Virus record (IMG/VR): IMGVR_UViG_3300027747_002579
Coordinates: 1-64,000 of that record
Length of the DNA: 64,000 nucleotides
Origin: a virus
Direction: 5' to 3' (one strand)
In this document: positions 10,831-63,702 of the stretch, in pieces
Numbering within the stretch: position 1 is the stretch's first letter
How the letters are laid out: every line of letters starts with the position of its first letter
The notes under the pieces: model-generated
Told to the model about the DNA's origin: nothing
Database searches by the model: none
Seen by the model: only the letters and a program-made list of their open reading frames with translations
Translations under genes and position numbers: made by a program

Positions 10831-11558
10831 TACCAGTAGATAGTTTATTATACAAGATTGATCAGAAACTAAATAAACTATCAACAAATGACCATCAACA
10901 AATTCCATTAGAAGACAAAATCTTAGCTCTTAATGAAGCTCAGATTAAGTTGATAAAACAAAAAGTTGATGGTGATAGCACTGTAAGTGGGTTAGGACTT
11001 GATGCTTTTAAAAAGAGATACGAAGATTTACAGAAGCTTGTTGAGCCTTATGAGAAACATGCGTTAGACTTAGTTTTAGCTGATGAAAACATGAATAAGT
11101 GGACAACTTCTCTTTTAAATCTTACGCCTGCATACATGTTTTATATAGATTGTTATTTAACAGCAGACAAAGGAAGATGTAAAGATAGAATAATATACAT
11201 AAACAAAGATTTAACCAAACATGGTGATCTTTCTATGTTTCTAACAAACACTCATTACAAACCATCTTTCGAATATCAAGAAACATTCAATATCATTTCT
11301 TCAGATAGTATAGGAATATTTACAGACGGAACATTCATTCCAAAAAAACTTCATCTCTCATACATGCGTTATCCTCAATACATAGACAAAGAAGGCTATG
11401 TGAAATTGAATGGGACAGATTCTACAAATCAGGATTGTGAATTGAAAAACTATTTAGAAGATGAACTTGTTGATTTGACAGTTCAAAATTTAGCAATGTA
11501 CACAGAAAATCAAAGTGCTGTTCAAAATTCAGCATTTAGAATAAAAACAAACGAATAA
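10827..11558 (+). CDS. Putative tail/neck ring (head-tail adaptor) protein
   Basis: LNEAQIKLIK and YMRYP...CEL...LEDELVDLTV motifs; position. Confidence 0.6.
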   Translation: MIPVDSLLYKIDQKLNKLSTNDHQQIPLEDKILALNEAQIKLIKQKVDGDSTVSGLGLDAFKKRYEDLQKLVEPYEKHALDLVLADENMNKWTTSLLNLTPAYMFYIDCYLTADKGRCKDRIIYINKDLTKHGDLSMFLTNTHYKPSFEYQETFNIISSDSIGIFTDGTFIPKKLHLSYMRYPQYIDKEGYVKLNGTDSTNQDCELKNYLEDELVDLTVQNLAMYTENQSAVQNSAFRIKTNE

Positions 11559-11585: not shown

Positions 11586-12785
11586 ATGGCAGATTTTTCT
11601 CTAACTACGCTCTTCGTAGTTCCTACAGCCCAAACTTCATTACCTACCACAGGAAGCACTCAAGATTTGACTGCTGGTCAACTTGGTATTTTCACTGATG
11701 CTTATGTTCCAAGTGCAACAGCTGCAACACTTGCTGCTGCTCCTTACATTTATATTGCTCAAGGTAGAGGTAACACCTACTTGCAAGGTTCTAAAAGATC
11801 AGACAAGATTTCTGGTAAGAACAACGCAGGCACTGGAAGAAACGTCACTGAATGGTATAAAGTGAGTGGTATTGCTTATGCTACAACTCAAATCACTAAA
11901 GTGAGTGGATTTAATGTAAAATGTGGAGATGTTGTCACTTTAACATTACGTGCACACTCTTCTTACATTGACACCTTGTATTTCAACGGTTTCACTCGTT
12001 CTGTAACTGTACAAGCTCCTTGTTGCGATTGTGGTGCAAGCGGTTGTGACAATGTTGATGTTCCTGCATTAATTGATCAATTCATTGCAAAACTTACACA
12101 AAAAGCTCCTGGTATCAACCCTGATAACATTAGCTTTAGCACATTCTTCACATTTGCAAGAGTGGGAACTGGTTCTACAGCATATTTGCAAATCACTGGT
12201 AAAGCTCTTACTAAATATGGTGTTCCTTGTGACGTTGCTGCATTCCCTTATGAGTATGACAGAATGTACTTCAGAACATTTGTATATTCAGGTCCTGCAA
12301 CCACTGCTGACTTCATCGTAGCTGACAACTGTAATATCGTTGCCACTGCTACAGTGTTACAACGTGCTTCTTACCCTGCTGGAGGTTCTGACGAAATCAC
12401 TCAACTTGAGAAGAATTATTATTCTTACCAAGCTGGTTATTTAAAGCATCTCTACAGAATGGCTGGATACAATCAAAACTTTGAAAGTTATGTATCTGCT
12501 AACACCACTTATGACACTTATTACATCAGATTTACAGAATACGATAAGAGTGCTTATCAGTGGGGTGATTATATTCCTCAAGAAAGCATGGTGATTATAG
12601 CTGTATTGGCTGGAGGTTCTCTTGCTACAGCAATTGAAGCTGCTTTGGCTGGTGTAACTAGTACATGGGCTGGTCCTTTAGGATTGTACACTGACAACAG
12701 TGCTCCTGCTCCATCAACTACTACTTCTACCACTACCACTGGTACTTCTACCACCACCACTACCACAACCACTTTGATTCCTTAA
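11586..12785 (+). CDS. Auxiliary capsid/decoration protein with C-terminal Thr-rich tail
   Basis: Codon bias like MCP, beta-rich, followed by hairpin; ends PSTTTSTTTTTGTSTTTTTTTTLIP. Confidence 0.7.
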   Translation: MADFSLTTLFVVPTAQTSLPTTGSTQDLTAGQLGIFTDAYVPSATAATLAAAPYIYIAQGRGNTYLQGSKRSDKISGKNNAGTGRNVTEWYKVSGIAYATTQITKVSGFNVKCGDVVTLTLRAHSSYIDTLYFNGFTRSVTVQAPCCDCGASGCDNVDVPALIDQFIAKLTQKAPGINPDNISFSTFFTFARVGTGSTAYLQITGKALTKYGVPCDVAAFPYEYDRMYFRTFVYSGPATTADFIVADNCNIVATATVLQRASYPAGGSDEITQLEKNYYSYQAGYLKHLYRMAGYNQNFESYVSANTTYDTYYIRFTEYDKSAYQWGDYIPQESMVIIAVLAGGSLATAIEAALAGVTSTWAGPLGLYTDNSAPAPSTTTSTTTTGTSTTTTTTTTLIP

Positions 12786-12809
12786 TCAATAAATAACAAA
12801 TCATAACCC

Positions 12810-12850
12810 TATGCCAGAGGTGAGAGAGGATTTCTCAATCCTCTGGCATA
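12810..12850 (+). terminator. Long hairpin after auxiliary capsid gene
   Basis: TATGCCAGAGG/CCTCTGGCATA 11-bp stem plus inner TGAGAG/TTCTCA; weak U-tract. Confidence 0.6.
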
Positions 12851-12866
12851 ATTATTTATAGAGATT

Positions 12867-13418
12867 ATGCCAACATTGCATTTAGATATATTAGTTATTG
12901 ACACTCACGATAGTAGAACATTAGGGATAGCAGACATATCAACTTATGCTACAACACCTTCTGCTCCTACAATAACTATCACTGTACCAGGATTTAACCC
13001 TTTACCAATTCCTTTTGTACCAAATAGTTTTAATGTATTCAATTCTGCAACGTTAGGACTTTCTTCTGCAGGGGTATACAATCCTATTCCTGATGGCATT
13101 TATTATTTAAAATATTCAATTGCTCCTGCAAATGTAAATTTTGTAGATAAAACATTCATGAGAGTGGAAAATCTTCAACAGAAGTTTGATGAAGCTTTTA
13201 TGAAATTGGATATGATGGAGTGTGATTATGCAATTAAGAAACAACAGAAGGTGGAATTGAATAGTATTTACTATTTCATACAAGGATCAATTGCTGCAGC
13301 AAATAATTGTGCTGTAGAAACATCAAATAAACTTTACAATCAAGCAAGTAAAATGCTTGATCATTTTATAACCAATGGTTGCAACTGTTCAGGAAACAAC
13401 TATTTTAATAATTACTAG
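12867..13418 (+). CDS. Virion structural protein (putative tail hub/fibre attachment)
   Basis: PDGIYYLKYS motif; position after auxiliary capsid gene. Confidence 0.55.
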   Translation: MPTLHLDILVIDTHDSRTLGIADISTYATTPSAPTITITVPGFNPLPIPFVPNSFNVFNSATLGLSSAGVYNPIPDGIYYLKYSIAPANVNFVDKTFMRVENLQQKFDEAFMKLDMMECDYAIKKQQKVELNSIYYFIQGSIAAANNCAVETSNKLYNQASKMLDHFITNGCNCSGNNYFNNY

Positions 13419-13419
13419 A

Positions 13420-13515
13420 ATGGCAAACTGTAATCAATGCGGAGCAAATGTAGGATGTGGATGTAATCTAACAAATGGTTTATGTGCATATTGTGCAGGA
13501 ACTCTAAAAAAATAA
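13420..13515 (+). CDS. 31-aa Cys-rich microprotein (not in ORF track)
   Basis: MANCNQCGANVGCGCNLTNGLCAYCAGTLKK*; fills the gap exactly. Confidence 0.7.
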   Translation: MANCNQCGANVGCGCNLTNGLCAYCAGTLKK

Positions 13516-13519
13516 AACT

Positions 13520-13786
13520 ATGCTTTCTCCAAGACTTACTAATTGTGTAGATTGTACAACAGTGTCAGCATTACTTGCAGATATTGATTGCAAACTCACA
13601 ACATTAGCTAACAATCAATATAACAATATTGTATTTATATTAAACAAACCTTTCCCAGACACAGTGTTGGGAGATTTGTTAAACTATAAAAGAATATTGA
13701 CAAACAGGTTGTGCAATCCTGATTATGCTTGCACTTATTCTACAGAACAAATAGCAAGTAGAGTCAAATTATTAATTCATAAATAA
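13520..13786 (+). CDS. Small virion structural protein (putative tail hub partner)
   Basis: Cys-containing 88-aa ORF in structural operon. Confidence 0.55.
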   Translation: MLSPRLTNCVDCTTVSALLADIDCKLTTLANNQYNNIVFILNKPFPDTVLGDLLNYKRILTNRLCNPDYACTYSTEQIASRVKLLIHK

Positions 13787-13796
13787 AATTTACAAT

Positions 13797-14933
13797 ATGT
13801 CTTGTACAAATTGTTTCAACGGATGTCCAGAAACAGGTTCAGATAAATGTATTCAGTATACAGGAATAGGAAGTGAAGTGTTAGGTATTTCTACAGGAGA
13901 TACATTATTAAGTGTAGAGAATGTATTAATCAACAGAGTGGTATCATTTCTTGACGGATCAGGGATTAGAATCACTACTCTTCAAGATTATCTTTGTGCA
14001 TTAATAACACCTTATTTAGACAATACACAAGATCCTACACTTCCAGAAGTGTTGGTGGCATTTGAGCGAGCTCTTTGTGATTTACAAACACAAACAACAG
14101 CTGTAACAAACACGGTGATAGGTCTTAATACTGGATATACAACAACTTGTTTGTCTGGCGTAAGCTCATCATCCACTATTAAACAGGTGGTGCAGGCAAT
14201 AATAGTGAAACTTTGCTCTGTTTCTACAGATCTAACAGCTCTCACAACAAACGTAAACACAAACTACGTAAAACTAGCAGATTTAAACTCTCTAATAGCA
14301 GCCTATCTACAGAGCATTGCTCCATCAGCACAATACTACACTAAGATGGTGCCTTACACTGTTGTTGAGTATTATGGTTCTCTTGCAGGAAACTTTGATG
14401 TAACAGGAAAAGGAATTGCAGCTACAGGATGGGACAAAGTGTATTTGTGTAATGGTTTAAATGGCACTCCTGATAAAAGAGGAAGAGCCACTGTTGGTGC
14501 TATTATAAGTGTAGGTGGAGGAGCTCTTGATTCAGAAGTTAATCCTGCTTCTTCAGCTTTCAATCCCAATTATGCATTGAATACAAAAGCAGGAACAAAC
14601 AGCGTTACGCTTTCTGAAAGCACAATGCCTTCTCACAATCATGCGACAACTGCTACAGATAGTGGACATTTCCATTACACTTCTTCAGAATCTGTAAATT
14701 CAGGAGCAGGAGCAGTTAGTGTAAATTCAACGCATCCAATAGGTATAACTAAGAATGACGGCAATCAAACAAGAAATTATGATTTGGTGATTGGCAATGT
14801 GCCTGCAATATATGGAATAACAAGCACTAACAGTGCAAATATAGTTGTAACAAATCCTCCAAAGGGTGGCGGTCTACCTCACGCAAATATTCAACCTGTA
14901 ATATCAGCATATTACATAATGTACATACCTTGA
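13797..14933 (+). CDS. Tail fibre-like protein with tail-collar domain
   Basis: WDKVYLCNGLNGTPDKRGR, MPSHNH, HFH and HANIQPVISAYYIM motifs of collar/short fibre proteins. Confidence 0.75.
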   Translation: MSCTNCFNGCPETGSDKCIQYTGIGSEVLGISTGDTLLSVENVLINRVVSFLDGSGIRITTLQDYLCALITPYLDNTQDPTLPEVLVAFERALCDLQTQTTAVTNTVIGLNTGYTTTCLSGVSSSSTIKQVVQAIIVKLCSVSTDLTALTTNVNTNYVKLADLNSLIAAYLQSIAPSAQYYTKMVPYTVVEYYGSLAGNFDVTGKGIAATGWDKVYLCNGLNGTPDKRGRATVGAIISVGGGALDSEVNPASSAFNPNYALNTKAGTNSVTLSESTMPSHNHATTATDSGHFHYTSSESVNSGAGAVSVNSTHPIGITKNDGNQTRNYDLVIGNVPAIYGITSTNSANIVVTNPPKGGGLPHANIQPVISAYYIMYIP

Positions 14934-14958
14934 TTTTAAATAAATAAAATTTACCACC

Positions 14959-15276
14959 ATGTCATGTGTTCCAGGAATGCCTTGCTACACTCAAACTGTA
15001 GTTTATTCTAATGAATGTGATGCTTGTAAACCTCTTACAACATCTGACGATGTGTATTACTCAGCATCGAATCTTCCTAACACAGGAATAAACTTCAAAG
15101 ACTCTCTAACATTGGCTCTACAGAAGATAGATGCAGAATTTGATCCAATTACATTAGCCTCAACAATACTTGCAACAATTGCTACAAACTATCAAACAAA
15201 AGCATTGTTCTGTAACCTTGTAACAAGTTGTGCCACTTTCTCCACCACTACATCTACAACCACCACACATTTATAA
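14959..15276 (+). CDS. Small structural protein with Thr-rich C-terminus
   Basis: N-terminal module shared with 13797 and 57342; ends STTTSTTTTHL. Confidence 0.65.
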   Translation: MSCVPGMPCYTQTVVYSNECDACKPLTTSDDVYYSASNLPNTGINFKDSLTLALQKIDAEFDPITLASTILATIATNYQTKALFCNLVTSCATFSTTTSTTTTHL

Positions 15277-15287
15277 AACATTAAACT

Positions 15288-15776
15288 ATGACAGTAGTAA
15301 TAACATTAACTACAGCAGGAACAAATACAGGACCTTTTAATCTATATTCTAATGTTGATGGATTCACATCAGCATTTGCAACAGGAATATCAAAATCAGC
15401 TCTCCTTGCTGGATATACATCAACAGCGGTTCCTAACGGAGCAACAGTTGTAAGAGCTCTTTCTACAGGAACAGATTGTAATGGTTCATATGTAGATATG
15501 AATATTAGTGGACTTCCTACATATTACACATATTTAATAAGCGGCACCACTCAAATGAACAATTCTGATGCATGTACAAACTTAACCACTCCTAATACAG
15601 TGTATTCAAAAGAAGCCAATTCAGATATTGTAATAAATTTTTACACAAACAGTCTTTGTACAATTCTTTTCTCAGGAGATGGAAATTATTACAAATATCG
15701 TCTTCAGAGCTCTTCTTCATTCTATTCTGCACAAATAAATGGAACATCTCCTCTTACTAATATATCACCTTGTTAA
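15288..15776 (+). CDS. Beta-rich virion accessory/decoration protein
   Basis: MTVVITLTTAGTNTGPFNLYS domain, paralogous to 26594 N-terminus. Confidence 0.6.
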   Translation: MTVVITLTTAGTNTGPFNLYSNVDGFTSAFATGISKSALLAGYTSTAVPNGATVVRALSTGTDCNGSYVDMNISGLPTYYTYLISGTTQMNNSDACTNLTTPNTVYSKEANSDIVINFYTNSLCTILFSGDGNYYKYRLQSSSSFYSAQINGTSPLTNISPC

Positions 15777-15811
15777 AAACACGGTTTGTTTGTTGGTTTA
15801 CAGACCTGTGT

Positions 15812-15840
15812 ACCCTGCCTTTTCTAAGGCGGGGTTTTTA
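15812..15840 (+). terminator. Rho-independent terminator
   Basis: ACCCTGCCTT-TTCT-AAGGCGGGGT then TTTT; a second hairpin at about 15779-15811 precedes it. Confidence 0.8.
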
Positions 15841-15882
15841 ATTAATAGAGTTAACCTATATAATCTAATTGGTTAAATTAAT

Positions 15883-15913
15883 TTTGTTTTTTTAAAAATA
15901 CCGTCTATCTTTG
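15883..15913 (+). promoter_or_regulatory. Host sigmaA promoter TTTG-N19-TATCTTTG
   Basis: Full Bacteroidota -33/-7 consensus between terminator and ATG 15938. Confidence 0.75.
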
Positions 15914-15937
15914 TTGTAAATTTGATAAATTTTTTGT

Positions 15938-17176
15938 ATGGCTGAAAACCAAAACGTTCTGTCACAGTTAGAACAACTATTAAGCTGGAAAAAGAGTAAG
16001 AAGTTTTATGCTGAAAAGCTAGGAATTACAGAACAAGAAGTGTCAGACTTATTGAAAGAAATAAGAGGAAAAGAAATCTCTTCTGCACCAGACACTTATG
16101 AAGAATTTGTAGAAGCTCTTGAAGAGCATTATACAAAGGTGAACAATGATAAAGGTACAATAGAGAGTACATTACAAATAGACTTTGAGCCAAAGAGTGA
16201 TTTAGAGCTTGCTAAACTACATAAAATAAACTTAGACAAATACAAGATTTCTAACTATTGGACTAAACAGAAATCAAATGGTAAGTTTACATCTTCTGTA
16301 TTTGCCACTCTGAAGAAACCAAAGGATTATTCTCCAGAAGATTTTTCTAAGTTTTTAGAAACATACAAACCTGCTGACATCATTGTAAGAAGTGTTGAAA
16401 ATGATCCTCTAGAGAAAGAAACAGTGGATGTAGAAGTTTCAATATGTGATTTTCACTTAGCTAAAAGAACATTAGAAGGTGACACAATAGAACAAAAGAA
16501 AGCACAATACTTAGGAGTGGTTAGAGACTTGGTGGAAAAAACAAGAAACTCTTTTGCAATAAACAAGATTGTTTTTCCAATATCAAATGATTTCTTTCAT
16601 ACAGACAACTATCAAAATCAAACAACTAATGGAACTCCTCAAGATGTTCTAGTAGAATATGATAATGAATACGAACAAGGGTTCGATTTATTAGTTACAA
16701 CAATCAATTACCTACAAGCTATTTCTAATAGTGTAGAAGTGATTCTTGTACAAGGTAATCACGACAGAACCAAATCATTCTATTTAGCACACGCATTAGA
16801 TGTGTTCTTTAAGAACAACGATAAGGTTGATTTTCAAAGATGGCATTCTACAACTAAACATGTTGTATTAGGAAACACATTCATAGGATATCATCATGGT
16901 AATTGTAAGATAGATGACCTTCCTCTTTTATTTGCCACAAACAATGATTCTTGTACAGATTTTGGAAATGCTGTTTACAGGGAGCTCCATACTGCTGATA
17001 AGCATCATTACATGGCAAAAGAAATAAAGGGAGTGAGAATACAACAGATGCCTTCATTATCAGGAACAGATAGATGGCATTCTGATAACAACTTTGTAAA
17101 TCAAATTCGTGCAGGGATTGTACTTATTTATCATCCAATCTATGGAAAGATTGGAGAATACGAAAGTCGAATATAA
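15938..17176 (+). CDS. Calcineurin-like metallophosphoesterase with N-terminal HTH-like segment
   Basis: Motifs DFH, NDFFH, GNHD, HHG, DKHH; N-term AEKLGITEQEV. Confidence 0.8.
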   Translation: MAENQNVLSQLEQLLSWKKSKKFYAEKLGITEQEVSDLLKEIRGKEISSAPDTYEEFVEALEEHYTKVNNDKGTIESTLQIDFEPKSDLELAKLHKINLDKYKISNYWTKQKSNGKFTSSVFATLKKPKDYSPEDFSKFLETYKPADIIVRSVENDPLEKETVDVEVSICDFHLAKRTLEGDTIEQKKAQYLGVVRDLVEKTRNSFAINKIVFPISNDFFHTDNYQNQTTNGTPQDVLVEYDNEYEQGFDLLVTTINYLQAISNSVEVILVQGNHDRTKSFYLAHALDVFFKNNDKVDFQRWHSTTKHVVLGNTFIGYHHGNCKIDDLPLLFATNNDSCTDFGNAVYRELHTADKHHYMAKEIKGVRIQQMPSLSGTDRWHSDNNFVNQIRAGIVLIYHPIYGKIGEYESRI

Positions 17177-17181
17177 ACAAT

Positions 17182-17907
17182 ATGTCAACATTACGAAAAC
17201 TAGTCTCAGACGTACGAGGTTCACATAAACTTCTTTCTACAGATGCTCTAATAACAGATAGAGTGATAGCATCTGAGATTAAGAACAATACCATTATGCT
17301 CGTAAAACGAGAAACAAATCTTCGTAAGCTATGGGCAACAGATACATTGTTTACAACAATCCCATGTCTAGAGATGACAGAAGTGAGCATTTCTGAATGC
17401 TGCGGATATGTTGATGATTGTACAATTGCAAGATCTGTAAACAAACTTCCTCGCATCTCTGAGGGCAATTATCAATATACAATACAGGGTGTTTATTCAA
17501 TAAACGCAATGGGTGGAAATGGTAAAAAGCTAAAAGAAATCACTGTCAATAGATATCTCAACTTACTAAAGCTTCCAATAATAAAGAACGAAGAGTATTA
17601 TTGGATAATGAATGGATATTTATACGTTACAAACCCTCTTCTAAAAGCAATAAGACTCTCTGCTTTCTTTGAGGAAGATGTTCCAAATGAAATAATGTTC
17701 TCTGAATGTTGTTGTGGAAATGATTTTAGCATAGATGACTATTGTAAAAATCCTCTAGATAAAGAGTTTCATGCTCCAGGATATTTAGAAACACAGATAT
17801 TAAAAATGACTTCTGATAAATTACTGTCCACTTATTTTAGACTTAAAACAGACATGACACAGGATGCAATAGATGGTCAAGCACCAAACACACCCAATAC
17901 AAAATAA
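17182..17907 (+). CDS. Tail ring/tubular protein
   Basis: Position in crAss tail module; YYWIMNGYLYV motif. Confidence 0.65.
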   Translation: MSTLRKLVSDVRGSHKLLSTDALITDRVIASEIKNNTIMLVKRETNLRKLWATDTLFTTIPCLEMTEVSISECCGYVDDCTIARSVNKLPRISEGNYQYTIQGVYSINAMGGNGKKLKEITVNRYLNLLKLPIIKNEEYYWIMNGYLYVTNPLLKAIRLSAFFEEDVPNEIMFSECCCGNDFSIDDYCKNPLDKEFHAPGYLETQILKMTSDKLLSTYFRLKTDMTQDAIDGQAPNTPNTK

Positions 17908-17918
17908 CATTAACATAG

Positions 17919-18398
17919 ATGAGTAGAGTGAAGATTGAATGGAGGAGTTGTAGTAAAGAGAATTACAAAGATTATTGTGCAAAACATTCTAATACAAAAT
18001 TAACGTTTGAAGAATGGAAAAGCATCATATATAAATTTAATGAAGATTTTAGAAACTATCTTCTAGAGACAGGAAAGAAAGAAAAGCTTCCTCATGGATT
18101 TGGTGATTTTGCAATAAACAAAAAGAAGAGAAAGAAGATTGTAACATACGAAGGCAAAGATTACATCAATCTTCCTATAGATTGGATAAAAACTAGAGAA
18201 AAAGGAAAGATAATATATAATTTCAACCACCATACAGAAGGATATTTCTTTGGATGGATATGGTTCAAACGCACATCAAGAATCAAAGGTCCTGAGTTTT
18301 GGTTCTTCAAGCCTACAAGAGTGACATCAAGAATGTTAGCTCACTATTTAAAAACCAACGACAAATATCAGCATCTATATCAATCATGGATAGTGTAA
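17919..18398 (+). CDS. IHF-like protein of the crAss tail module
   Basis: KLPHGFGDFAINK, basic; characteristic position. Confidence 0.65.
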   Translation: MSRVKIEWRSCSKENYKDYCAKHSNTKLTFEEWKSIIYKFNEDFRNYLLETGKKEKLPHGFGDFAINKKKRKKIVTYEGKDYINLPIDWIKTREKGKIIYNFNHHTEGYFFGWIWFKRTSRIKGPEFWFFKPTRVTSRMLAHYLKTNDKYQHLYQSWIV

Positions 18399-18408
18399 AA
18401 AAATCGAT

Positions 18409-18843
18409 ATGTCTAAAAAAGTAACAGAACGAAGAAGTTCTCCAGAATATAAAGTCTGGAACAATTTTAAAACTAGATGTTATAATTCAAACACTTTAAA
18501 TTATAATAGATATGGTGGTAGAGGAATAACTGTTTGTGACAAATGGTTAACGTTTGAAGGATTTTTAGAAGATATGGGAAAAAGACCCTCTAGAAATCAT
18601 TCTTTAGATAGAATAAACAATGATGGAAATTATTGTAAAGATAATTGTAGATGGACAACTCGTAAAGAACAAACCAGAAATAGAAGCACTAACGTTTATA
18701 TTTTTTACAATGGTCGCAATATGATTTTAAAGGATCTTGCAAAAGAAGTGGGATTAGATTATCAAGTTATAAAAAGAAGATTAGATAAAGGTGTAGATAT
18801 AAATATTGCAGTCAGAAAAGATTTAAAATATGTTAGACTATGA
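18409..18843 (+). CDS. HNH homing endonuclease (free-standing)
   Basis: YGGRGITVCDKW...SLDRINNDGNYCKDNCRW...QTRN, C-terminal HTH. Confidence 0.9.
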   Translation: MSKKVTERRSSPEYKVWNNFKTRCYNSNTLNYNRYGGRGITVCDKWLTFEGFLEDMGKRPSRNHSLDRINNDGNYCKDNCRWTTRKEQTRNRSTNVYIFYNGRNMILKDLAKEVGLDYQVIKRRLDKGVDINIAVRKDLKYVRL

Positions 18844-19763
18844 GCTACTATTACAAATATAATTTCGTAACTCCTGAACCTGTCTATTCTACAGTGAAAG
18901 AAGAGCTTAAGAGCTATTTTGACACTGGTGCTGTAGATGACTTAATGTTCCCTACATATTTAGACAAATGCTTAAGAAAATTAGGCAGGAGTTCATATGT
19001 CATAACAGAAACTCAATTACACATTGAAGATTTTCAAGCAAGACTTCCAGACAACTTCTTTGCTGTAAGAGAAGCTTGGTTGTGTACATACGTGCAAGGA
19101 TATCCCTATCAATCAGCAAACTCGTTCTATTCTCAATCAGAACAAACAACAATACAAGTGTCACCAGTTACAATAAATGGTGTTCCTTGCACAAACTGCT
19201 CATCCCCTTCTTGTGATGGAGCATGTCTTCCCCAACTTATACAGGCTGTTTACAAAACTAACAATTCAATAAATCAGAATTACCAAAGAGCTTTCTTGTT
19301 AAAACCAGGAAACATTTCTGTAAGAGCTGATTGTGCATTGGATTGTGCAAACTTTGGCTCTTCAGCTGCTGACTCATTTGATATTAGAGACAATAAGTTT
19401 GTCACTAATTTTAGAAATGGTGTAGTGCATTTGATATTTTATTCATACGACTACGATACATCTGGTAATCAAATGATTCCTGACAACTATCGTATAAGAG
19501 AATACGTAGAAGCATTCATTAAATATAAAGTGTTTGAAACTCTTTCTAATCAAGTGAATGACGAAACATTCAATCAGATAGAAAAGAAGTTGATGTATTA
19601 TAAACAACTCTCTGAAGAAGCATTCATCATGGCGGATATAGAGGTGAAGAAACAAGACGTTTATAAAAAGCAAAGAAAGATAAGAGAAGAGCTTAATAGA
19701 TTTAACATGTACGAACTTCCAAATCGTATTGATAGTAGATATGGTTGGAGACGCAATGGATAA
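18840..19763 (+). CDS. Tail tubular/ring protein (P22 gp4-like)
   Basis: Immediately before the stabilisation gene; ARLPDNF and MIPDN motifs. Confidence 0.7.
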   Translation: MSYYYKYNFVTPEPVYSTVKEELKSYFDTGAVDDLMFPTYLDKCLRKLGRSSYVITETQLHIEDFQARLPDNFFAVREAWLCTYVQGYPYQSANSFYSQSEQTTIQVSPVTINGVPCTNCSSPSCDGACLPQLIQAVYKTNNSINQNYQRAFLLKPGNISVRADCALDCANFGSSAADSFDIRDNKFVTNFRNGVVHLIFYSYDYDTSGNQMIPDNYRIREYVEAFIKYKVFETLSNQVNDETFNQIEKKLMYYKQLSEEAFIMADIEVKKQDVYKKQRKIREELNRFNMYELPNRIDSRYGWRRNG

Positions 19764-19778
19764 TTTATAATATACATT

Positions 19779-22700
19779 ATGGCAGACAACGAACAAGGCA
19801 ATATACGTACAGAATATAGCGTTGCAAGAATAGGCTTGGACATGGACTCTTCTGTTAATCAAATAGTAGAAGGTAAACTCTCGTATGCCCTAAATGCTGC
19901 TCTTGAGAACTTTGATTCAAATTCTATTAATTATCAGAATGAATCAGGTAATGATTTATGTTTAAAGTTTCCTGAAGATTTTCAACTAATTGGTGAACAT
20001 TTCATCAATGAACAAAATAAACACATATTCTTTTTAACCAATCCAAACACAGGAGAAAGTGAAATTGGATATATGGACAATAACGATTGTGTCTATAGAA
20101 CCTATATAAACGCATTCTGTTTAAACTTTAATGTAGATGATCCCATCCATAAAGCTGTACATAAAATAACTAATTGTACAACAGAAATTTATTGGACGGA
20201 TGGCATAAACCCAAGAAGATATTTAGATTTAACCAATCTTCCCTACAAAATACAACCAGGCACAAATGTGTGTGATAATGTTACAACAACAGAAATTGAT
20301 TGTAATAAATTAAAAGTGCAGCCTAATTTTGAGATTCCCTATTTAGATGTGGTGGACATAATTAGTGGAGGAAGCCTAACATCAGGCACATATCAATTTG
20401 CTGTACAATATTGTAATGCTTCAGGAGATGCTTACACGTCTTATTATTCTGTCACCAACCCCACTCCTATTGCAAAAACTCAACTAATATCTGCTGATTT
20501 TAATTACAATGTAGGAAAGTCTATTGTATTAAATGTTTCCAATCTTGATGTTACAGGATATTTTGAATATTATAATATTGCTGTAATTAAGACAGTGAAC
20601 TCTATATCTTCTGTAGAACTAGTGGGTACATATTTTATAGATGATAATTTTAATCAAATCACTTACACAGGACAGAACGTAACACAAATACGTCTCACAA
20701 TAAACGAAATATTCGAAAAGTTTCCTTATTACGATATTGCTCAAGATTTAACAGCTGTACAAGATGTACTTGTATGGGACCAACTCACTTCTATAGACAG
20801 GATAAATTATCAACAGATAGCTAATCAAATTGAACTTGGATGGCAAACATATAGAATTCCTTCTACAGAAAACTATGCTGATGAACTAAACGCAACAAAC
20901 CTAAGAGGCTATCTAAGGGATGAAGTGTACGCATTTGAAATAGTGTTTCTCTTGAAGAACGGAAAACAAACAGATGGATTTCACATCCCTGGAAGAATAC
21001 AAGACTTCAACGAGTTTTCTCAACCAGATGTTCCTAATACAAATGCAGATTTTATTGGAGAACCCTCGTACACGCAAGGAAACGTGGGATATAGCCCTTA
21101 TTGGAAAATATACAATACAGCAAGCGTAACAGCAAATTCTCCTGAATATACAACAGATTCGAACTACAAGGGTCCTTATCAGTATGGTAAGTTTGCATAT
21201 TGGGAATCTACAGAACTATATCCTTGCAACACGTTAGTGTGGGGAGATCTTGCTAACACTCCCATAAGACACCACAAGTTTCCAGACGTAAATATTAGTC
21301 CAATATTTGAGACACCATTTATTGAATTAAATGGAAATGGTACATACAAACTTGCTACAGCAAAAGATGCTATATTTCCAATAGGTGTAAAGATTGATAT
21401 ACAAAGAGTTTCTCAATTAATTTATACATCCTCTCTTACAAAAGAGCAAATAGACAATATTGCAGGATTTAAAATTGTAAGAGGTGATAGAGGTACAAAC
21501 AAGTCAATTGTTGCTAAAGGTATTTTAAGAAACGTTGGTAAATACGAAAGAGAAGGCACCACATATTTGTTTCCCAACTATCCGTACAACGATTTAAGAG
21601 AAGATCCTTTTATATTAAAAAATCCTAATGCTTTTAATTCTGAGTGTAGAACATACAAAATTGTAACAACAACAAAGATTATTGCTGAATACACTGATTG
21701 TTTCACAAACACTGTGAAGACAAAAGAAATTCCAGCACGTACTACAGAATACATATGTTCATTAACTGTCCCTGTTAGAAGACCTTCTGAAGGAATAGCT
21801 ACAGTGGATTTAATTAAGTTTTCTTCTTATAGACTCACAAGTGTTATTTCTGCAACATTTAGTTATATTGATGCTATTACAGAAGCAGCAACTTCTATAA
21901 ATGTAACATCAGCTACACCAAAGGTGGTGAATGTTAAGCTAGATACAGTGCCTACATTTCTTTATGGAGAAGGAGGATTTACAATTTCTCTATTGAGTAT
22001 AAACATAAACATGTATTGCTATCCCACTGCTCTTAAAGCATTTGATAGTGATGATAGTAAATACAGACATGTATTTAATTCTCCAGACACATCTTTTGGT
22101 CAACCTTTCTTAGGAGATGTATTAAAACTTGAAAGTGTCATATTTGGAAAAGGTTCTGCTCATTTTGTAGAAGTGAAGAAGCATGCTCTTTACAAACTCC
22201 TTTCTAGAGAAGCACAAATAGATGCTCTTAACAGTAGTAGAGATCTTGGTAACATCACTTCTCCGTTTAATCCTGCAGCAATGTTTGCTGCTTATCAATC
22301 GTATTTAACTATTTACATTAATGGTATAACGAGAAGAAACTTTGCTTATTCGTATAACTCAATAGCAAGTTATGACTATGCTTCTTCTATAGAGAATAAT
22401 GTAGGTGTTAAACAGAGAGAATTAGATATTGCTCAATACATATTTCCAGGTGTACAGTCAGTTAATGACACATACAATATTAACAACTATCAAAGAGAAA
22501 CTTCTGTTTATTTAAAAACAGCAGCTACAAAAGTTCCTCTCCCTTTCCCAAACAAAACTCCCTCTCTTCTTCTTCCAGGTAATATAAGTGCTGTAACAGA
22601 TAATTCAAGAAGTACAATTTCTCAACAAGGAAATTGCTCAAAACCTAATGAACAATTCTCAATAGACACAGTGTGTTATTATGCCTCATTGAAAAATCAA

Positions 22701-24953
22701 TTTATTAATCAATGGGGACAGATTTATTCATACGATACAATTGATACAGGATTTCAAAGAAATATTGAAATTGATAACATTATAAATGGACAATCTTCTA
22801 CAGCAACAATATTTGGAGGAGATACATTCATTAACAGATTTGCATTTAAAACAAAGCTTCCATTCTTTATTGACAATAGAGTGAATGCTCCAGATGACAG
22901 TGACATATTCTATGATGAAATAGGAAACGTTGCCTATCCTCAATATTGGTATTCTTCAAGAAGTATATTAAATGACTATCAAGGACTTGGTGACGATTTT
23001 GCCACCAACATGAAGAATATTATTTCTACAAAAGCACATTATTTTGATTGTCCTAACAATCAACTTCCTGCTCCTGATAGCACTGCCAATCCACCAATAG
23101 TAAACATTGACAGAACTTTCTATGATGGAAAGATGTATTTGTTTGCTTATGGTATTCCGTCATTCTATTGCGAATCTTCTATTAATGTTGACCTTAGACA
23201 AGCGTTCAATGACAGAGAAGGAGACTTCTATCCTCACGTTTCTACAGGAATTCCTGATAACTGGTTACAAGAATCCTTTGTATCCATCCAACAAGACAAT
23301 ACATATTTCTATAATACAACATTCTCTAAACAGAATAAAGAAAACTATTTCTCTCATCTTCCAATAAATTGGACAGAGCAATTGTGTTACACACATTTTC
23401 CATTTAGAACAATTTATTCTGATAGACAACAAAGCTTTTCTGACAATAGAATAAACAGCTGGCTCATCTATAGACCAATTTCTAAGTTTGATTTCCCTCA
23501 AAACTATGGTAAGCTTACATCTTTAGATGGTATACAAAATAGAGCCATTCTTGCAAGATTTGAAAATAAGTCTTTACTTTATGGTACACTTCTAACAATC
23601 AATACATCAAATCCTCAAGCTGCGTACATGGGTAATGATACATTATTCCAATCATCACCTCCTGTTGATTTTGCAGAAACAGATCTTGGATATGTAGGAA
23701 GTCAGCACAAGATGTTATTAAAGATTCCTCAAGGGCAACTCACTGTAGATGCTAAAAGAGGGCAAGTGTTTTTGATTCAAGGTAATCAAGCAACAGATAT
23801 TTCTGCTCCAGGTTCTGGAATGAATAGATTTTTTACAGACCATCTTGCGTTTGAAATATTGAGATATTTTCCTGATGTAGATGTAGACAATCACTTTAAA
23901 TCAATAGGACTACACGGTGTGTACGATTCTAAGTTTGACAGAGTGATTCTAACAAAGCTGGACTACCTCCCCCTCAACCCAAACATAAAATACGATGCTT
24001 CTACAGATGAGTTTTACATCAATAAGATAGTAAACAATACAACAATAAAAATAATTGTCTATCTATCAGATAACACTTATTTTTGCAATAAGTCATGGAC
24101 AGTTTCTTACAGTGTAAATAACAAAAGTTGGATTTCTTTTCATTCCTATATTCCAAATTGGTATGTAGCAGAAAATAACTTTTACTATTCAGGAATAAAT
24201 GGAAGTTGTGATTTAGATGTTATTGCTGTACAACAAATAACAACTACGTCAACAACATCCACAACAACAACAAGAACGTCTACCACATCTTCTACAACAA
24301 CAACACAAATTCCAATAAATTGTACATTAATAGGAACATCTGTGTACCAAGCTCCTTACAATTGTCAATTAATAGGAACAGCTGTCTACAGCACCTATCC
24401 AAATTGTACACTTGCAGGAACAGCAGTTTATTCAGCATTCCCTGATTGTAGACTAGCAGGACAAGCTGTGTATTCAAATGGCACCACCACAACAACATCT
24501 ACATCATCTACATCAACAACAACAATTCCTACCACCACCACTACATCTACCACCACATCAACAACAACTACTAAACCTATTACAACCACTACATCTACAA
24601 CGTCAACTACTACCACAGCAGCTCCTACAACCACCACTAGTACAACAAGTTCTACAACCACTACCACTACTACGCAGCCACCTACAACAACCACAACAAC
24701 ATCTACTACCAGCACTACAACCACTCAAGCACCTACCACTACTACATCAACAACAACATCTACAACAAGTACAACTAGCACTACTACATCTACCACAAGC
24801 ACAACAAGCACAACAACATCAACCACCACAACTCGACCTCCAACCACCACTACCACCACTACAACAATTCCTCCATCTTATGCGTTTTGTTTAGGCTATT
24901 CATTAACTAGCGATTTTGCTGCTTGTAATAATTACAGTTCATCATGTTTATAA
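19779..24953 (+). CDS. Tail stabilisation/muzzle protein, N-terminal portion, with mucin-like C-terminal extension
   Basis: IYWTDGINPRRY, GYLRDEVYAF, SWISFHSYIP motifs, then Thr tracts and Cys repeats. Confidence 0.85.
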   Translation: MADNEQGNIRTEYSVARIGLDMDSSVNQIVEGKLSYALNAALENFDSNSINYQNESGNDLCLKFPEDFQLIGEHFINEQNKHIFFLTNPNTGESEIGYMDNNDCVYRTYINAFCLNFNVDDPIHKAVHKITNCTTEIYWTDGINPRRYLDLTNLPYKIQPGTNVCDNVTTTEIDCNKLKVQPNFEIPYLDVVDIISGGSLTSGTYQFAVQYCNASGDAYTSYYSVTNPTPIAKTQLISADFNYNVGKSIVLNVSNLDVTGYFEYYNIAVIKTVNSISSVELVGTYFIDDNFNQITYTGQNVTQIRLTINEIFEKFPYYDIAQDLTAVQDVLVWDQLTSIDRINYQQIANQIELGWQTYRIPSTENYADELNATNLRGYLRDEVYAFEIVFLLKNGKQTDGFHIPGRIQDFNEFSQPDVPNTNADFIGEPSYTQGNVGYSPYWKIYNTASVTANSPEYTTDSNYKGPYQYGKFAYWESTELYPCNTLVWGDLANTPIRHHKFPDVNISPIFETPFIELNGNGTYKLATAKDAIFPIGVKIDIQRVSQLIYTSSLTKEQIDNIAGFKIVRGDRGTNKSIVAKGILRNVGKYEREGTTYLFPNYPYNDLREDPFILKNPNAFNSECRTYKIVTTTKIIAEYTDCFTNTVKTKEIPARTTEYICSLTVPVRRPSEGIATVDLIKFSSYRLTSVISATFSYIDAITEAATSINVTSATPKVVNVKLDTVPTFLYGEGGFTISLLSININMYCYPTALKAFDSDDSKYRHVFNSPDTSFGQPFLGDVLKLESVIFGKGSAHFVEVKKHALYKLLSREAQIDALNSSRDLGNITSPFNPAAMFAAYQSYLTIYINGITRRNFAYSYNSIASYDYASSIENNVGVKQRELDIAQYIFPGVQSVNDTYNINNYQRETSVYLKTAATKVPLPFPNKTPSLLLPGNISAVTDNSRSTISQQGNCSKPNEQFSIDTVCYYASLKNQFINQWGQIYSYDTIDTGFQRNIEIDNIINGQSSTATIFGGDTFINRFAFKTKLPFFIDNRVNAPDDSDIFYDEIGNVAYPQYWYSSRSILNDYQGLGDDFATNMKNIISTKAHYFDCPNNQLPAPDSTANPPIVNIDRTFYDGKMYLFAYGIPSFYCESSINVDLRQAFNDREGDFYPHVSTGIPDNWLQESFVSIQQDNTYFYNTTFSKQNKENYFSHLPINWTEQLCYTHFPFRTIYSDRQQSFSDNRINSWLIYRPISKFDFPQNYGKLTSLDGIQNRAILARFENKSLLYGTLLTINTSNPQAAYMGNDTLFQSSPPVDFAETDLGYVGSQHKMLLKIPQGQLTVDAKRGQVFLIQGNQATDISAPGSGMNRFFTDHLAFEILRYFPDVDVDNHFKSIGLHGVYDSKFDRVILTKLDYLPLNPNIKYDASTDEFYINKIVNNTTIKIIVYLSDNTYFCNKSWTVSYSVNNKSWISFHSYIPNWYVAENNFYYSGINGSCDLDVIAVQQITTTSTTSTTTTRTSTTSSTTTTQIPINCTLIGTSVYQAPYNCQLIGTAVYSTYPNCTLAGTAVYSAFPDCRLAGQAVYSNGTTTTTSTSSTSTTTIPTTTTTSTTTSTTTTKPITTTTSTTSTTTTAAPTTTTSTTSSTTTTTTTQPPTTTTTTSTTSTTTTQAPTTTTSTTTSTTSTTSTTTSTTSTTSTTTSTTTTRPPTTTTTTTTIPPSYAFCLGYSLTSDFAACNNYSSSCL
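24318..24479 (+). repeat. Four tandem 42-nt (14-aa) repeats [ND]CxLxGx[SA]VY
   Basis: Units start at 24318, 24360, 24402, 24444. Confidence 0.9.
24483..24866 (+). repeat. About 128-codon Thr/Ser/Pro mucin-like tract
   Basis: Mixed ACA/ACC/ACT/ACG codons; shorter tract at 24240-24306. Confidence 0.95.
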
Positions 24954-24967
24954 AACTAAAGATATAA

Positions 24968-26020
24968 ATGGCAAATGTTTATTCAAATTGTTCGACATTA
25001 GCAATAGGTTGCAGAATCTTTGACGATCCTGCTCTGCTCACTCCAGCTGCTTTAGGATATTATTCTGATGGCGTAGTTGCATATAATGCAGTGAGAGAAT
25101 CTGGTCAAATATACACAATACTTAATGCAGGATTTACTTGTTCTAATATTCCTGATCCTAATCCAATTATTGTAACCACCACTACATCTACAACAACATC
25201 TACTACTACTAGTAGACCTACCACTACAACTAGCACAACATCAACAACCACATCTACAACTAGTACTTCTACTACAAGTACAACATCTACCACTAGTACA
25301 ACAACGAGTACATCTACATCAACTACTTCCACAACCACTACAGTTGCTCCCGCACAAATTGTAACAAGCGGTTTAATTTATCATCTCGATGCAAATAATG
25401 CCTCAAGCTATACACTAAACGGTTCAACTTGGACAAATTTAGTATCCCCAGGAAGTTCTACAATGTCTCTATCATCTACAACTGGAGGAACAGAAAGCAC
25501 AGGCGGTAAGTATGTTAATTTTGACGGAGTTAGCAGTAAGGGACTTGTATCTAATTACACTTACGGAACAGTTAACACGGTTCAATTTTGGTTTAACCCT
25601 ACAAAAGTGCCCTCACTTTATGGAATTTGGATATCATCAGGTGGAACGGCATATTCATATTCTGCTTATGATTGGGCATTTTTTTCGTATTATCAAACTC
25701 CATATCAATATGAATTTTTAGGCTCTTCAGATAACAGCAAAACAAGAATTACACGTTCTTTATCCTTAAATAATTGGTATTTTATAACTTTGATTAGAGA
25801 TAATGGAACATCAAATCCTTTGCAAGTACAAATTAATGAAGGAACACCAGTTACAGCAACTCAAGGAGCATTTAATAACACTCAACCTAATTTCCTAAGA
25901 ATTAATCAAGATGGAACAGCAGGCTGTAAATTTGGACAAATAATTATGTATAACAGATTACTTACATCTTCTGAAATTACACAAAATTTTAACTTTAATA
26001 AAGCAAAGTATGGATATTAA
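24968..26020 (+). CDS. Virion accessory protein: Cys domain, Thr-rich linker, LamG/concanavalin-like lectin domain
   Basis: IVTSGLIYHLDA...FDG...TVQFWFNP...NNWYFITL...YNRLLTSSEITQNFN; Thr tract about 25175-25342. Confidence 0.8.
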   Translation: MANVYSNCSTLAIGCRIFDDPALLTPAALGYYSDGVVAYNAVRESGQIYTILNAGFTCSNIPDPNPIIVTTTTSTTTSTTTSRPTTTTSTTSTTTSTTSTSTTSTTSTTSTTTSTSTSTTSTTTTVAPAQIVTSGLIYHLDANNASSYTLNGSTWTNLVSPGSSTMSLSSTTGGTESTGGKYVNFDGVSSKGLVSNYTYGTVNTVQFWFNPTKVPSLYGIWISSGGTAYSYSAYDWAFFSYYQTPYQYEFLGSSDNSKTRITRSLSLNNWYFITLIRDNGTSNPLQVQINEGTPVTATQGAFNNTQPNFLRINQDGTAGCKFGQIIMYNRLLTSSEITQNFNFNKAKYGY

Positions 26021-61946: not shown

Positions 61947-62081
61947 ATGATCAGTAAACAAATAGGCTGGAGTCAAGAAGCAAATCTTCTCTACGAAATT
62001 AGCAACAAGCTGGAAAGATTAATACAAGTGAGTGGAAGTCCTTCAACAACTACATCCACCACCACTACGACAGCACCTTAA
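61947..62081 (+). CDS. 44-aa microprotein: fibre-type N-terminal helix plus Thr tail (not in ORF track)
   Basis: MISKQIGWSQEANLLYEISNKLERLIQVSGSPSTTTSTTTTTAP*; paralog of 58116 N-terminus. Confidence 0.8.
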   Translation: MISKQIGWSQEANLLYEISNKLERLIQVSGSPSTTTSTTTTTAP

Positions 62082-62104: not shown

Positions 62105-62695
62105 ATGAAAGAGTTAGTATTTATTTGCGAAACATGGAAGCGTTGTCCAGGGTATGAATCTTCTTATGAAGTTAGTACACTTGGGAATGTTAGAAGTATT
62201 GACAGAATATCTGGAAATAGACGTGGAGTGATTAAGAGTAAATTACTAAAATCTTATATTAATAAAAAAGGATATTTAGAAGTAAGATTGTATAAAAATT
62301 CTAAGCACATTTTTAAAATAATACATAGATTGATTGCTAAAGCTTTTTTACCAAATGAAAACAAACCACAAGTCAATCATATAGATGGTAATAAGTTAAA
62401 CAATAGAGTAGACAATCTTCAATGGGTTGATAATTCAGAAAATCAACTACATGCTTATAAATTAGGATTACAACCTAGTAGAGCTGGTGAGAACAATGTT
62501 AAAGCAAAAATTAAAGATAAAGATGTAACTTTATTAAAAGAGTTATATAACTCTGGTAAAACTATTGCTGAAGTTTCTAATATAACAAAAATAAGTGTAA
62601 GTTCAATTAGAGCAATTATTTATGGAAATACTTGGAAATCTAATACAACAGCAATTATAAAAAGAGATGATAGATTTAAACCAACAACAGTATGA
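62105..62695 (+). mobile_element. NUMOD4-HNH homing endonuclease gene
   Basis: WKRCPGYESSYEVSTLGNVRS (NUMOD4), IHRLIAKAF, VNHIDGNKLNNRVDNLQW. Confidence 0.92.
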
Positions 62696-63702
62696 TTAAA
62701 GAATTAAAGTTTTTGTGCTCGCAGCCAGATGATTCGTATTATAAATGGCAAACACATCTATGGCTAGAGAGTCTTAAGAAAATAGGAAAGAGTGAACAAG
62801 CTATTGTATTAGTTTACACTCCCGCAGAAAGGCAATACAATACAGAATGGGACGAATTAAAAGAACTCTATCCAGAAGCAACATTTGGTTTCTATAGAGA
62901 TGAAGATGGTGTATCAGACTTTATTCCAATTTATATTCCAGTGTTGCGTCCTTACACATTAATGAGATGGTTCAAAGATCATCCAGAGATGAAAGACAAA
63001 GCCATTTTCTATTGTGATTGTGACATTGTGTTTACAGAGAATTTCAACATCGATGCTTACATAAATGATGATGTGTGTTATCTGTCTGACACAAACTCTT
63101 ACATAAACGCTTCATATTTTGATAGCAAGAAAAATGATGTTCTACAGGACAAACAAGAACTATACAACACAAGAGACGTATTAAACGAACTCACATCTCT
63201 TATAGGAATAAATAGACAAATAGCTGAAGCAAATAATTTACATTCAGGAGGAGCACAATATCTTCTGAAGAACATAGATTATAAGTTTTGGCAGAAAGTG
63301 TTTAGTGATTGTATTCTTATTAGAAGATTTTTGTTAAACATTAACGGACAATTCTTTGAGAGTGAGAACAAAGGATTTCAAAGTTGGTGTGCTGACATGT
63401 GGGCTGTCTTGTGGAACCTTTGGTATAAAGGATACACAACACAAGTGGTGAAAGAAATGGACTTTGCATGGGCAACTGACCATATATCAAGAATGGATTC
63501 TATAGGACTGTTTCATAATGCAGGAATATCCAATACAGATATGGGACATTACAAAGCATTCTATAAAGGAAAATATATACATGGTGTCTCTCCATTCAGT
63601 GATTTAGATGAGGTGTATAACAACGAAGAGAGTAAGAAGTATTGTACACATTATTATGTCAGTCAGTTGGTAGAATTGAAAAACAAATACAATTTAAAAT
63701 AA
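62692..63702 (+). CDS. GT-A fold glycosyltransferase resembling peptide O-glycosyltransferases (GT96/GT95-like)
   Basis: YYKWQ, YIPVLRPY..RWF, DxD in FYCDCDIVF, GGAQY, WCADMW, FHNAG. Confidence 0.7.
   Translation: MIKELKFLCSQPDDSYYKWQTHLWLESLKKIGKSEQAIVLVYTPAERQYNTEWDELKELYPEATFGFYRDEDGVSDFIPIYIPVLRPYTLMRWFKDHPEMKDKAIFYCDCDIVFTENFNIDAYINDDVCYLSDTNSYINASYFDSKKNDVLQDKQELYNTRDVLNELTSLIGINRQIAEANNLHSGGAQYLLKNIDYKFWQKVFSDCILIRRFLLNINGQFFESENKGFQSWCADMWAVLWNLWYKGYTTQVVKEMDFAWATDHISRMDSIGLFHNAGISNTDMGHYKAFYKGKYIHGVSPFSDLDEVYNNEESKKYCTHYYVSQLVELKNKYNLK

Follow-up and report, generated by a model that had tools for sequence, protein, structure and literature searches.

Why would a phage equip its particle proteins with mucin-like runs of threonine and serine? 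The question arises from the first 64 kb of the 107,671-bp virus record IMGVR_UViG_3300027747_002579 in IMG/VR (positions 1 to 64,000, here called the window), where the gene of a putative capsid-surface protein of 399 residues (11586..12785, plus strand) ends in a two-block Thr/Ser tail (12714..12773). An original prediction, made from the letters of the window, had noted such tracts on at least five predicted virion proteins and had taken them for acceptor tags of a glycosyltransferase encoded at 62692. Our preferred reading, to which we assign a probability of about 0.6, is that the tracts are indeed acceptor tags for O-glycosylation by the phage's own enzyme P0001, the product of the gene at 62692. 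It is drawn from comparative genomics and from a DxD motif in the enzyme. The particle is probably sugar-coated.

All six frames of the 107,671-bp genome were scanned from end to end. Thr-dominated runs within long open frames were confined to five proteins, all encoded on the plus strand in the structural half of the genome; from 64 to 107 kb there was no such run in a real coding frame. The tail of the 399-residue protein comprises blocks of 9 and 10 residues with one Gly between them (aa 377-385 and 387-396), followed by LIP and the stop. A Cys-rich small protein of 105 residues (14959..15276) has a terminal tag at 15241-15267, a nine-residue S/T block (aa 95-103) two residues from the stop, and a micro-open reading frame (micro-ORF) of 44 residues (61947..62081) joins a fibre N-terminal segment to a Thr tag (62043-62072) of 10 residues, also two residues from the stop. 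Nine blocks lie towards the C-terminus of the muzzle protein of 1724 residues (19779..24953; PF25731 crAss_MUZ, E 2.5e-31 and 109.1 bits, cut-off 27), at aa 1488-1509 (24240-24305) and aa 1569-1696 (24483-24866). Finally, the LamG protein of 350 residues (24968..26020) consists of a 69-residue N-terminal part, a Thr/Ser linker of 56 residues (aa 70-125, 25175-25342) and a lectin-like Laminin_G_3 domain. PF13385 matched residues 126-350 with an E-value of 6.9e-7 and 30 bits against a cut-off of 27.6, a match that appeared only with the tract removed, while a scan of the whole protein gave none. We infer that the products of ORF 14959 and of the micro-ORF belong to the virion as well. One further Thr run at 6368-6385 lies in a frame of 34 codons that, by coordinate arithmetic, differs from the frame of the portal ORF.

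The positions agreed with those originally predicted for all five proteins except for a single offset, the muzzle tract ending at 24305 instead of 24306, and the three terminal tracts, which end 2-3 residues before the stop, link nothing, as had been claimed. The names muzzle and LamG were borne out by the hidden Markov model (HMM) matches. A common grammar connects the five proteins: a Thr block is followed by a short spacer with Pro, and this holds for each of the nine T blocks of the muzzle protein, where Pro stands at the end of the spacer or within it. Across 20,614 residues with an S+T content of 14.6% we counted 15 S/T runs of at least 8 residues where 0.0037 would be expected. When the residues were shuffled 1000 times, a run of this kind turned up in no more than 5 of the shuffles. 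Thus a chance origin of the tracts is excluded.

A neutral origin by trinucleotide slippage is a different matter, and it would account for the arrays of period 3 and of longer periods that Tandem Repeats Finder reported over the tracts, among them one in the tail of the 399-residue protein with a 21-nt unit (94%), and for the length differences of the muzzle tracts between strains. Yet the period-3 rows showed just 64-70% matches and no identical Thr codon was repeated more than four times. The tracts used ACA, ACT, ACC and ACG at 46%, 26%, 24% and 3%, respectively, and the share of ACC among Thr codons was 24% inside the tracts versus 6% elsewhere. Among the genes that share the most frequent 23-residue tail (32 distinct ones), where the residues are fixed by the search pattern and only the codon spread is informative, each Thr site used three to four codons and the Ser sites switched between the unlinked families TCN and AGY. 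The tail of the 399-residue protein was bridged without an indel by contigs of three other freshwater runs; among the substitutions listed, the only one inside this tail, at 12716, is synonymous by codon reading. In the muzzle tracts, the strain indels listed were 3, 3, 9 and 3 nt and the simple skips 72 and 90 nt. They are all multiples of three, so the reading frame was always kept. Moreover, the tail persists in orthologues down to about 41% identity. Slippage is therefore already contradicted and we give it next to no credence. The data support protein-level selection of the tracts, which had been proposed at the outset from the mixture of synonymous Thr codons and now gains from tail retention and in-frame indels. 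Joints between distant tracts, e.g. from 12736 to 25272, had short sides of 21-41 nt and were read as low-complexity assembly artefacts.

The proposal that the enzyme at 62692 acts on the tags was examined by means of its gene neighbourhoods. The set of close relatives comprised 80 IMG/VR loci whose enzyme is 60-65% identical. In 79 of them there were Thr-tract ORFs on the strand of the enzyme gene, and by the positions listed per locus most tracts lie within about 2 kb of it. These loci held 152 small (up to 200 aa), terminally tagged ORFs, 112 of them distinct, and 37 of the 112 were homologues of the micro-ORF at 61947. The N-terminal 28 residues of the micro-ORF product are 54.5% identical to the start of a 464-aa fibre-like protein encoded at 58116-59510 (E 4e-10).

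We then considered bacterial genomes with a more distant enzyme (60 loci of at least 5 kb, 24-63% identity, flanks of up to 10 kb on each side). Thr-tract ORFs were present in 47 of the 60 loci, and in 41 a tract belonged to the gene whose end lies immediately upstream of that for the enzyme. The tracts were again mostly terminal (107 of 143 at most 15 residues from a stop) and close, 124 of 143 lying within 4 kb upstream of the enzyme gene and only two more than 4 kb away on either side. In many loci of Firmicutes, mostly Bacillaceae, proteins of about 400, 105 and 210 residues, each terminally tagged, precede the enzyme.

The same combination was seen in cultured phages. All six phages with the enzyme, which represent five host genera, were tagged: phiFL1A on capsid and tail proteins, bIL285 and 9183 on a tail protein each, phiCTP1 on portal, gp11 and tail tube, Semele on gp074 and gp075, and the Chryseobacterium phage MA9V-3 on the products of two genes upstream of the enzyme gene. 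Whether tags also occur in phages that lack the enzyme had been named as a check on the original prediction; in five hand-picked enzyme-free stretches with a total of 215,889 bp (Lbo-JY46, 36 kb; FpV4, 50 kb; bIL286, 42 kb; phiFL4A, 38 kb; the virion genes of crAss001, 50 kb) there were 0 tracts. Among relatives with a tailed 399-residue protein, the four that are at least 90% complete all possess the enzyme, and the four records without it are only 25-69% complete.

Some observations in the cultured phages concern the capsid proteins. In the Enterococcus phage 9183 (L166 in our set of loci, 11000-11130) the capsid stop is followed by a Thr tail of about 30 residues in another frame, which ends 4 codons before a stop, and in bIL285 (L163, 19956-19973) six Thr in another frame follow directly after the stop in the gene for the major capsid protein (MCP). 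These out-of-frame tails may reflect programmed frameshifting that tags part of the subunits, or sequencing errors. The capsid protein and orf51 of the enzyme-free Lactococcus prophage bIL286 (L274) end in the stubs TTTST and STTTT, which are seen at a relaxed threshold only. The records of bIL286 and of enzyme-bearing bIL285 name one host strain, and tagging of bIL286 in trans is conceivable.

How stable is the tail of the 399-residue protein? IMG/VR contains at least 597 relatives of this protein, and an orthologue set of 118 loci yielded 96 distinct proteins with 41-99% identity to it. The tail was kept in 94 of the 96; IP forms the end of 72, two blocks occur in 70, and VWP, IWP or AAP is the usual spacer. 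A Cys precedes the first block by at most three residues in 83 of the 96. The tail was missing only in L186/L187 and L194/L200, loci in which genes nearby are still tagged; of these two untailed types, one terminates immediately behind the conserved Cys, and in the other 11 unrelated residues form the end. Because both types are on contigs that are 25-28% complete, the absence of the enzyme there says nothing. A search for relatives that lack the enzyme and have an untailed version of the protein led to mostly tailed relatives with P0008 as the query and to nothing with P0012.

In a wider search of 1.84 billion representative proteins we obtained 134 relatives of the 399-residue protein, 68 of them full length; 17 of the 68 have a Thr tail and 51 do not. 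Because of this split, and because gp36 of the phage crAss001 ends where the tail begins, the tail appears from the sequences to be an add-on to the fold of the protein. The resemblance to gp36 (7qof_a) was the best one among 177,635 PDB sequences for a profile of 56 sequences, albeit weak (E 0.03, 16.4 bits, last 60 columns only); gp36 ends about 10 residues later and is tailless. A pairwise BLASTP comparison of the two proteins was not significant (best E 0.87). Both genes are alike in size and in their position downstream of the MCP gene: the MCP gene at 8103 is followed by ORFs of 322, 243 and 399 residues, that of crAss001 by ORFs of 330, 238, 230 and 333 residues. This profile match and the gene position make an auxiliary capsid protein, as the original prediction had called it, a candidate designation. 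The phage collection did not contain a match to the protein by megablast or tblastn.

The position of gp36 would have consequences for the number of tags. In the crAss001 structure (PMC10172136), a large part of the outward-facing surface of the capsid is built from gp36 and an insertion domain of the capsid protein, and each asymmetric unit of the T=9 shell holds nine copies of gp36. If the 399-residue protein were placed like gp36, it is fair to expect that its tags would coat the whole head, since about 9 x 60 tails with 19 Ser/Thr each would offer of the order of 10^4 possible sites.

What kind of enzyme is P0001? The protein of 336 residues (62692..63702, plus strand) belongs to phrog_4417, which PHROGs lists as 'unknown function' (E 3.4e-52). 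In 50 sequences with 24-66% identity, Y107-x-D109-x-D111 is invariant and H275-N-A-G is near-invariant; the DxD follows a hydrophobic strand like the motif of GT-A nucleotide-sugar transferases. A protein atlas holds a confident model of P0001 with a predicted template modelling (TM) score of 0.91. Among the 30 nearest named clusters of the atlas, 22 carry the label PF23452 HPAT on 10-58% of their members. A PqqD-HPAT cluster has a TM score of 0.70 to P0001, and a cluster of 581-residue Bacteroidota proteins with a galactosyltransferase domain label has one of 0.86, all of these being leads that come without alignment statistics. In L212, residues 485-540 of the long Bacteroidota fusion form matched Glyco_transf_7C (E 1.4e-5). 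No precomputed Pfam label was attached to any of the 240 proteins listed as homologues of P0001 and of the distant member L211, and the PF23452 model did not match P0001 at E-values up to 10 or the 50 members at E-values up to 1, the gathering score being 23.9 bits. The DxD motif, the HPAT-labelled neighbours and the fusions with a galactosyltransferase domain make P0001 a candidate nucleotide-sugar transferase. Neither a GT2 nor a GT1 or GT8 gene was found in the genome, so P0001 is the only candidate glycosyltransferase found there.

Phage particles assemble in the bacterial cytoplasm. The tracts would act there, in the infected cell, as portable O-glycosylation acceptor tags of virion proteins. 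A tag is built from at least one block of some 7-10 Thr interspersed with Ser, and each block is closed by a short spacer that usually ends in Pro (xWP, AAP, QPP or a terminal IP). P0001 would be produced late, alongside the structural genes, and would attach sugars to the tags, exposed and unfolded as they are, prior to assembly or in its course. The tags of the capsid-surface protein would form several hundred brush-like tails per head, and the long internal tracts of the muzzle and LamG proteins would be stiff glycosylated stalks. The products of ORF 14959 and of the micro-ORF, each a docking segment plus a tag, would serve as extra glycan carriers. The sugar transfer, its timing and its effect on the particle, which could be a hydrated shield or an adhesive coat, are what we infer from this arrangement.

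Several results weigh against glycosylation by P0001. P0001, alone or as a 50-sequence profile, matched no Pfam, NCBIfam or PDB sequence entry. A six-frame search with PF23452 of this genome and of five homologue-bearing genomes was empty, a weak negative as the control genomes were silent too. Profile-profile comparison with GT8 by hhalign reached probabilities of 2.3% (with 2 sequences) and 6.3% (61 GT8 against 84 family sequences), neither of them significant; in the first alignment the motifs DxD, SGG/NSG and HNAG/HFAG line up in order, likewise without significance. The lack of any GT2, GT1 or GT8 gene belongs here as well. On the side of the tags, the 80 IMG/VR loci are close kin and therefore represent one lineage and not independent cases, and the five enzyme-free stretches are few. 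Moreover, no tract was seen in the flanks (up to 10 kb on each side) of 13 of the 60 enzyme-bearing loci from bacterial genomes, even under a looser rule, which means that the enzyme family also works without such tags nearby. Nine of the 13 encode fusions of 479-829 residues (eight in Bacteroidota records), the other four short forms. The original link between the tags and the enzyme gene is supported by their strong, repeated association in unrelated phages, while the identity of the enzyme as a glycosyltransferase finds no curated model to lean on.

The fusions deserve a remark of their own. P0001-like Bacteroidota proteins of 479-829 residues with a C-terminal extension were seen in ten loci (L210, L212, L216, L217, L226, L227, L230, L233, L241 and L254); nine are tract-free in the flanks examined and L210 has one tract 5.6 kb upstream. 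The tract-free ones may be cellular relatives with other acceptors.

If P0001 did something else, the tracts could be unmodified hydrophilic, extended spacers or bristles, acting as stalks between the domains of the muzzle and LamG proteins and as loose tails by which particles avoid clumping. The long internal tract of the LamG protein, which sits between two folded parts, the 69-residue N-terminal part and the LamG domain, would suit such a role, as would the linker-like in-frame length variation between strains and the enzyme loci without tags nearby. Three of the tags are terminal and have nothing to space, however, and in most orthologues the terminal tail keeps its block length, its spacer and the final IP. 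Unmodified spacers also leave unexplained why tags occur beside one enzyme family in unrelated phages and are missing from the five enzyme-free stretches. We regard them as unlikely. Slightly less likely still is that the tags are modified in another manner, either by a host enzyme or by a phage enzyme that adds something other than a simple sugar, e.g. a phospho-sugar or a polyol phosphate. P0001 fits no curated glycosyltransferase model, among its atlas neighbours are PqqD fusions of the sort usual in systems that modify peptides, and streptococcal host enzymes glycosylate Ser/Thr-rich disordered regions according to PMC12041528. The streptococcal system described there works outside the cytoplasm, whereas the particles are assembled inside. 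Furthermore, the DxD is invariant and the tags follow a phage gene across hosts from Firmicutes to Bacteroidota.

That the tails are signals for assembly or maturation which are cleaved off and absent from the mature particle seems improbable to us. Their terminal position would allow it and the conserved Cys before the first block could mark a processing site, but the internal tracts of the muzzle and LamG proteins are not removable without cutting these proteins, and removal would leave the link to the enzyme unexplained. The general O-glycosylation of Bacteroidota takes place in the periplasm at the motif D-(S/T)-(A/I/L/V/M/T). It was rejected as a source of the modification because phages assemble in the cytoplasm. 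On balance, O-glycosylation of the tags by P0001 remains the reading we prefer.

Virion glycosylation of mycobacteriophages has reportedly been covered by Freeman et al. 2023, Cell Host Microbe 31:1216. According to PMC11256854 and PMC12691614, phage glycosyltransferases of mycobacteriophages such as Che8 and Rita glycosylate the major capsid proteins and the glycans shield the particle against recognition by antibodies. The likeness is a phage-encoded enzyme that decorates virion proteins, or here would do so. Poly-Thr, by contrast, is absent from the ends of the capsid protein (...NKTGS) and the tail-tube protein (...YSDGS) of Che8, while here C-terminal stretches of a different sequence are found on three proteins and a mucin-like Thr block tag, present on at least five, would be the acceptor. 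As hosts there are Bacteroidota and Firmicutes here instead of Actinobacteria, and a tblastn search with P0001 against 50,697 phage records matched 77 records with no Mycobacterium phage among them. Thus the present case would work like mycobacteriophage glycosylation and is not a member of that system.

The nearest named atlas family to P0001 are the plant hydroxyproline O-arabinosyltransferases (PF23452 HPAT), which we take to be CAZy GT95. These enzymes glycosylate repetitive, extended, low-complexity peptide stretches that resemble the tags. They differ in that their HMM does not match P0001 and in that they use hydroxyproline, while the acceptor here would be Thr/Ser. Pro-punctuated Thr/Ser stalks are also known from the Pro/Thr/Ser (PTS) domains of mucins and from the Pro/Thr linkers of secreted bacterial glycoside hydrolases, both of which are commonly O-glycosylated. 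Yet those are made in the secretory pathway or outside the cytoplasm, whereas the phage assembles in the cytoplasm and three of its five tags are terminal. crAss001 shares the MCP family PF23898 and the muzzle family PF25731 with our phage, and its outer-layer auxiliary capsid protein (Bayfield et al. 2023, PMC10172136) resembles the 399-residue protein in size and gene position. crAss001 differs in that the 50 kb of virion genes contain no Thr tract even at a relaxed threshold and that gp36 is tailless. Neither the 60 enzyme matches listed nor the organism tally included a Bacteroides phage. In the full-text literature, with most subscription journals outside the coverage, we found no paper that links phage poly-threonine tails with a glycosyltransferase, be it in crAss-like phages or in phages of Firmicutes.

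By its sequence the carrier is a distant, uncultured crAss-like phage of freshwater. The genome has a G+C content of 33% and a CheckV completeness of 93%, and no tRNA genes were found in its 107.7 kb. ORF 8103-9656 matches the crassvirus MCP model PF23898 (E 7.7e-29), and by this capsid protein the closest cultured relatives, at 22-26% identity, are a Leptolyngbya phage and phages of Flavobacterium psychrophilum. Public sequencing data contained near-identical DNA in 24 runs (14 studies). Freshwater is the label of 18 of these runs, and two of the 24 may be the source sample. On a 112-kb contig that was binned with a Sediminibacterium metagenome-assembled genome there is an enzyme copy with 63% identity, a binning that hints at a Bacteroidota host.

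Other features of the window touch on the tagged genes. ORFs 13797-14933 and 14959-15276 begin with a similar Cys-rich segment. Homologues of the N-terminus of ORF 14959 were found in 67 of the 118 orthologue loci with 37 distinct C-termini, 18 of them Thr-tailed; some C-termini are long and fibre-like and some consist only of the tag. This suggests that the Cys-rich segment is a common docking module with exchangeable ends. Between the muzzle tracts, at 24317-24408, there are four copies of a 14-residue unit (Tandem Repeats Finder period 42) with one Cys and a G-T/Q-A/S-V-Y core. An ORF for a NUMOD4/HNH homing endonuclease (62105-62695; E 6.5e-13 and 1.4e-10) separates the micro-ORF from the enzyme gene, whose start it overlaps by 4 nt. 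Relatives have just an empty gap of about 60 nt from the end of the tagged micro-ORF to the enzyme gene, and the homing-endonuclease ORF looks like an insertion. A 144-residue ORF at 18409-18843 was cleanly skipped (432-435 nt) in contigs from three other freshwater runs and appears to be an optional gene of the tail module.

Beyond the single phage, the data leave even odds, in our estimate, for a broader proposal in which an unnamed enzyme family and a transferable poly-Thr tag form a mobile two-part kit with which phages of Firmicutes and Bacteroidota, including crAss-like phages, would build a mucin-like glycan brush on whichever virion protein has the tag added to it. Here the head, the muzzle and a lectin-bearing fibre would be covered, along with dedicated micro-proteins made of hardly anything beyond a tag and a docking helix. 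The idea is directly testable in the cultured carriers phiFL1A, bIL285, 9183 and MA9V-3. Glycosylation of the tags would mean that mycobacteriophages are not alone in having sugar-coated virions, and that such virions are a widespread trait with an enzyme family of its own and a simple, readable acceptor code. This would bear on the survival and movement of phages in water, biofilms and mucus and on their recognition by antibodies and lectins. It would also affect the interpretation of phage proteomes, in which tagged proteins would migrate and ionise anomalously, and it would offer phage engineering a site-directed display of glycans from a short tag and one enzyme. crAss-like phages would gain a surface layer that is missing from the sole solved structure, that of crAss001. 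Should the proposal of a mobile kit hold, cytoplasmic mucin-type O-glycosylation would be a common and so far unrecognised feature of phage particles.

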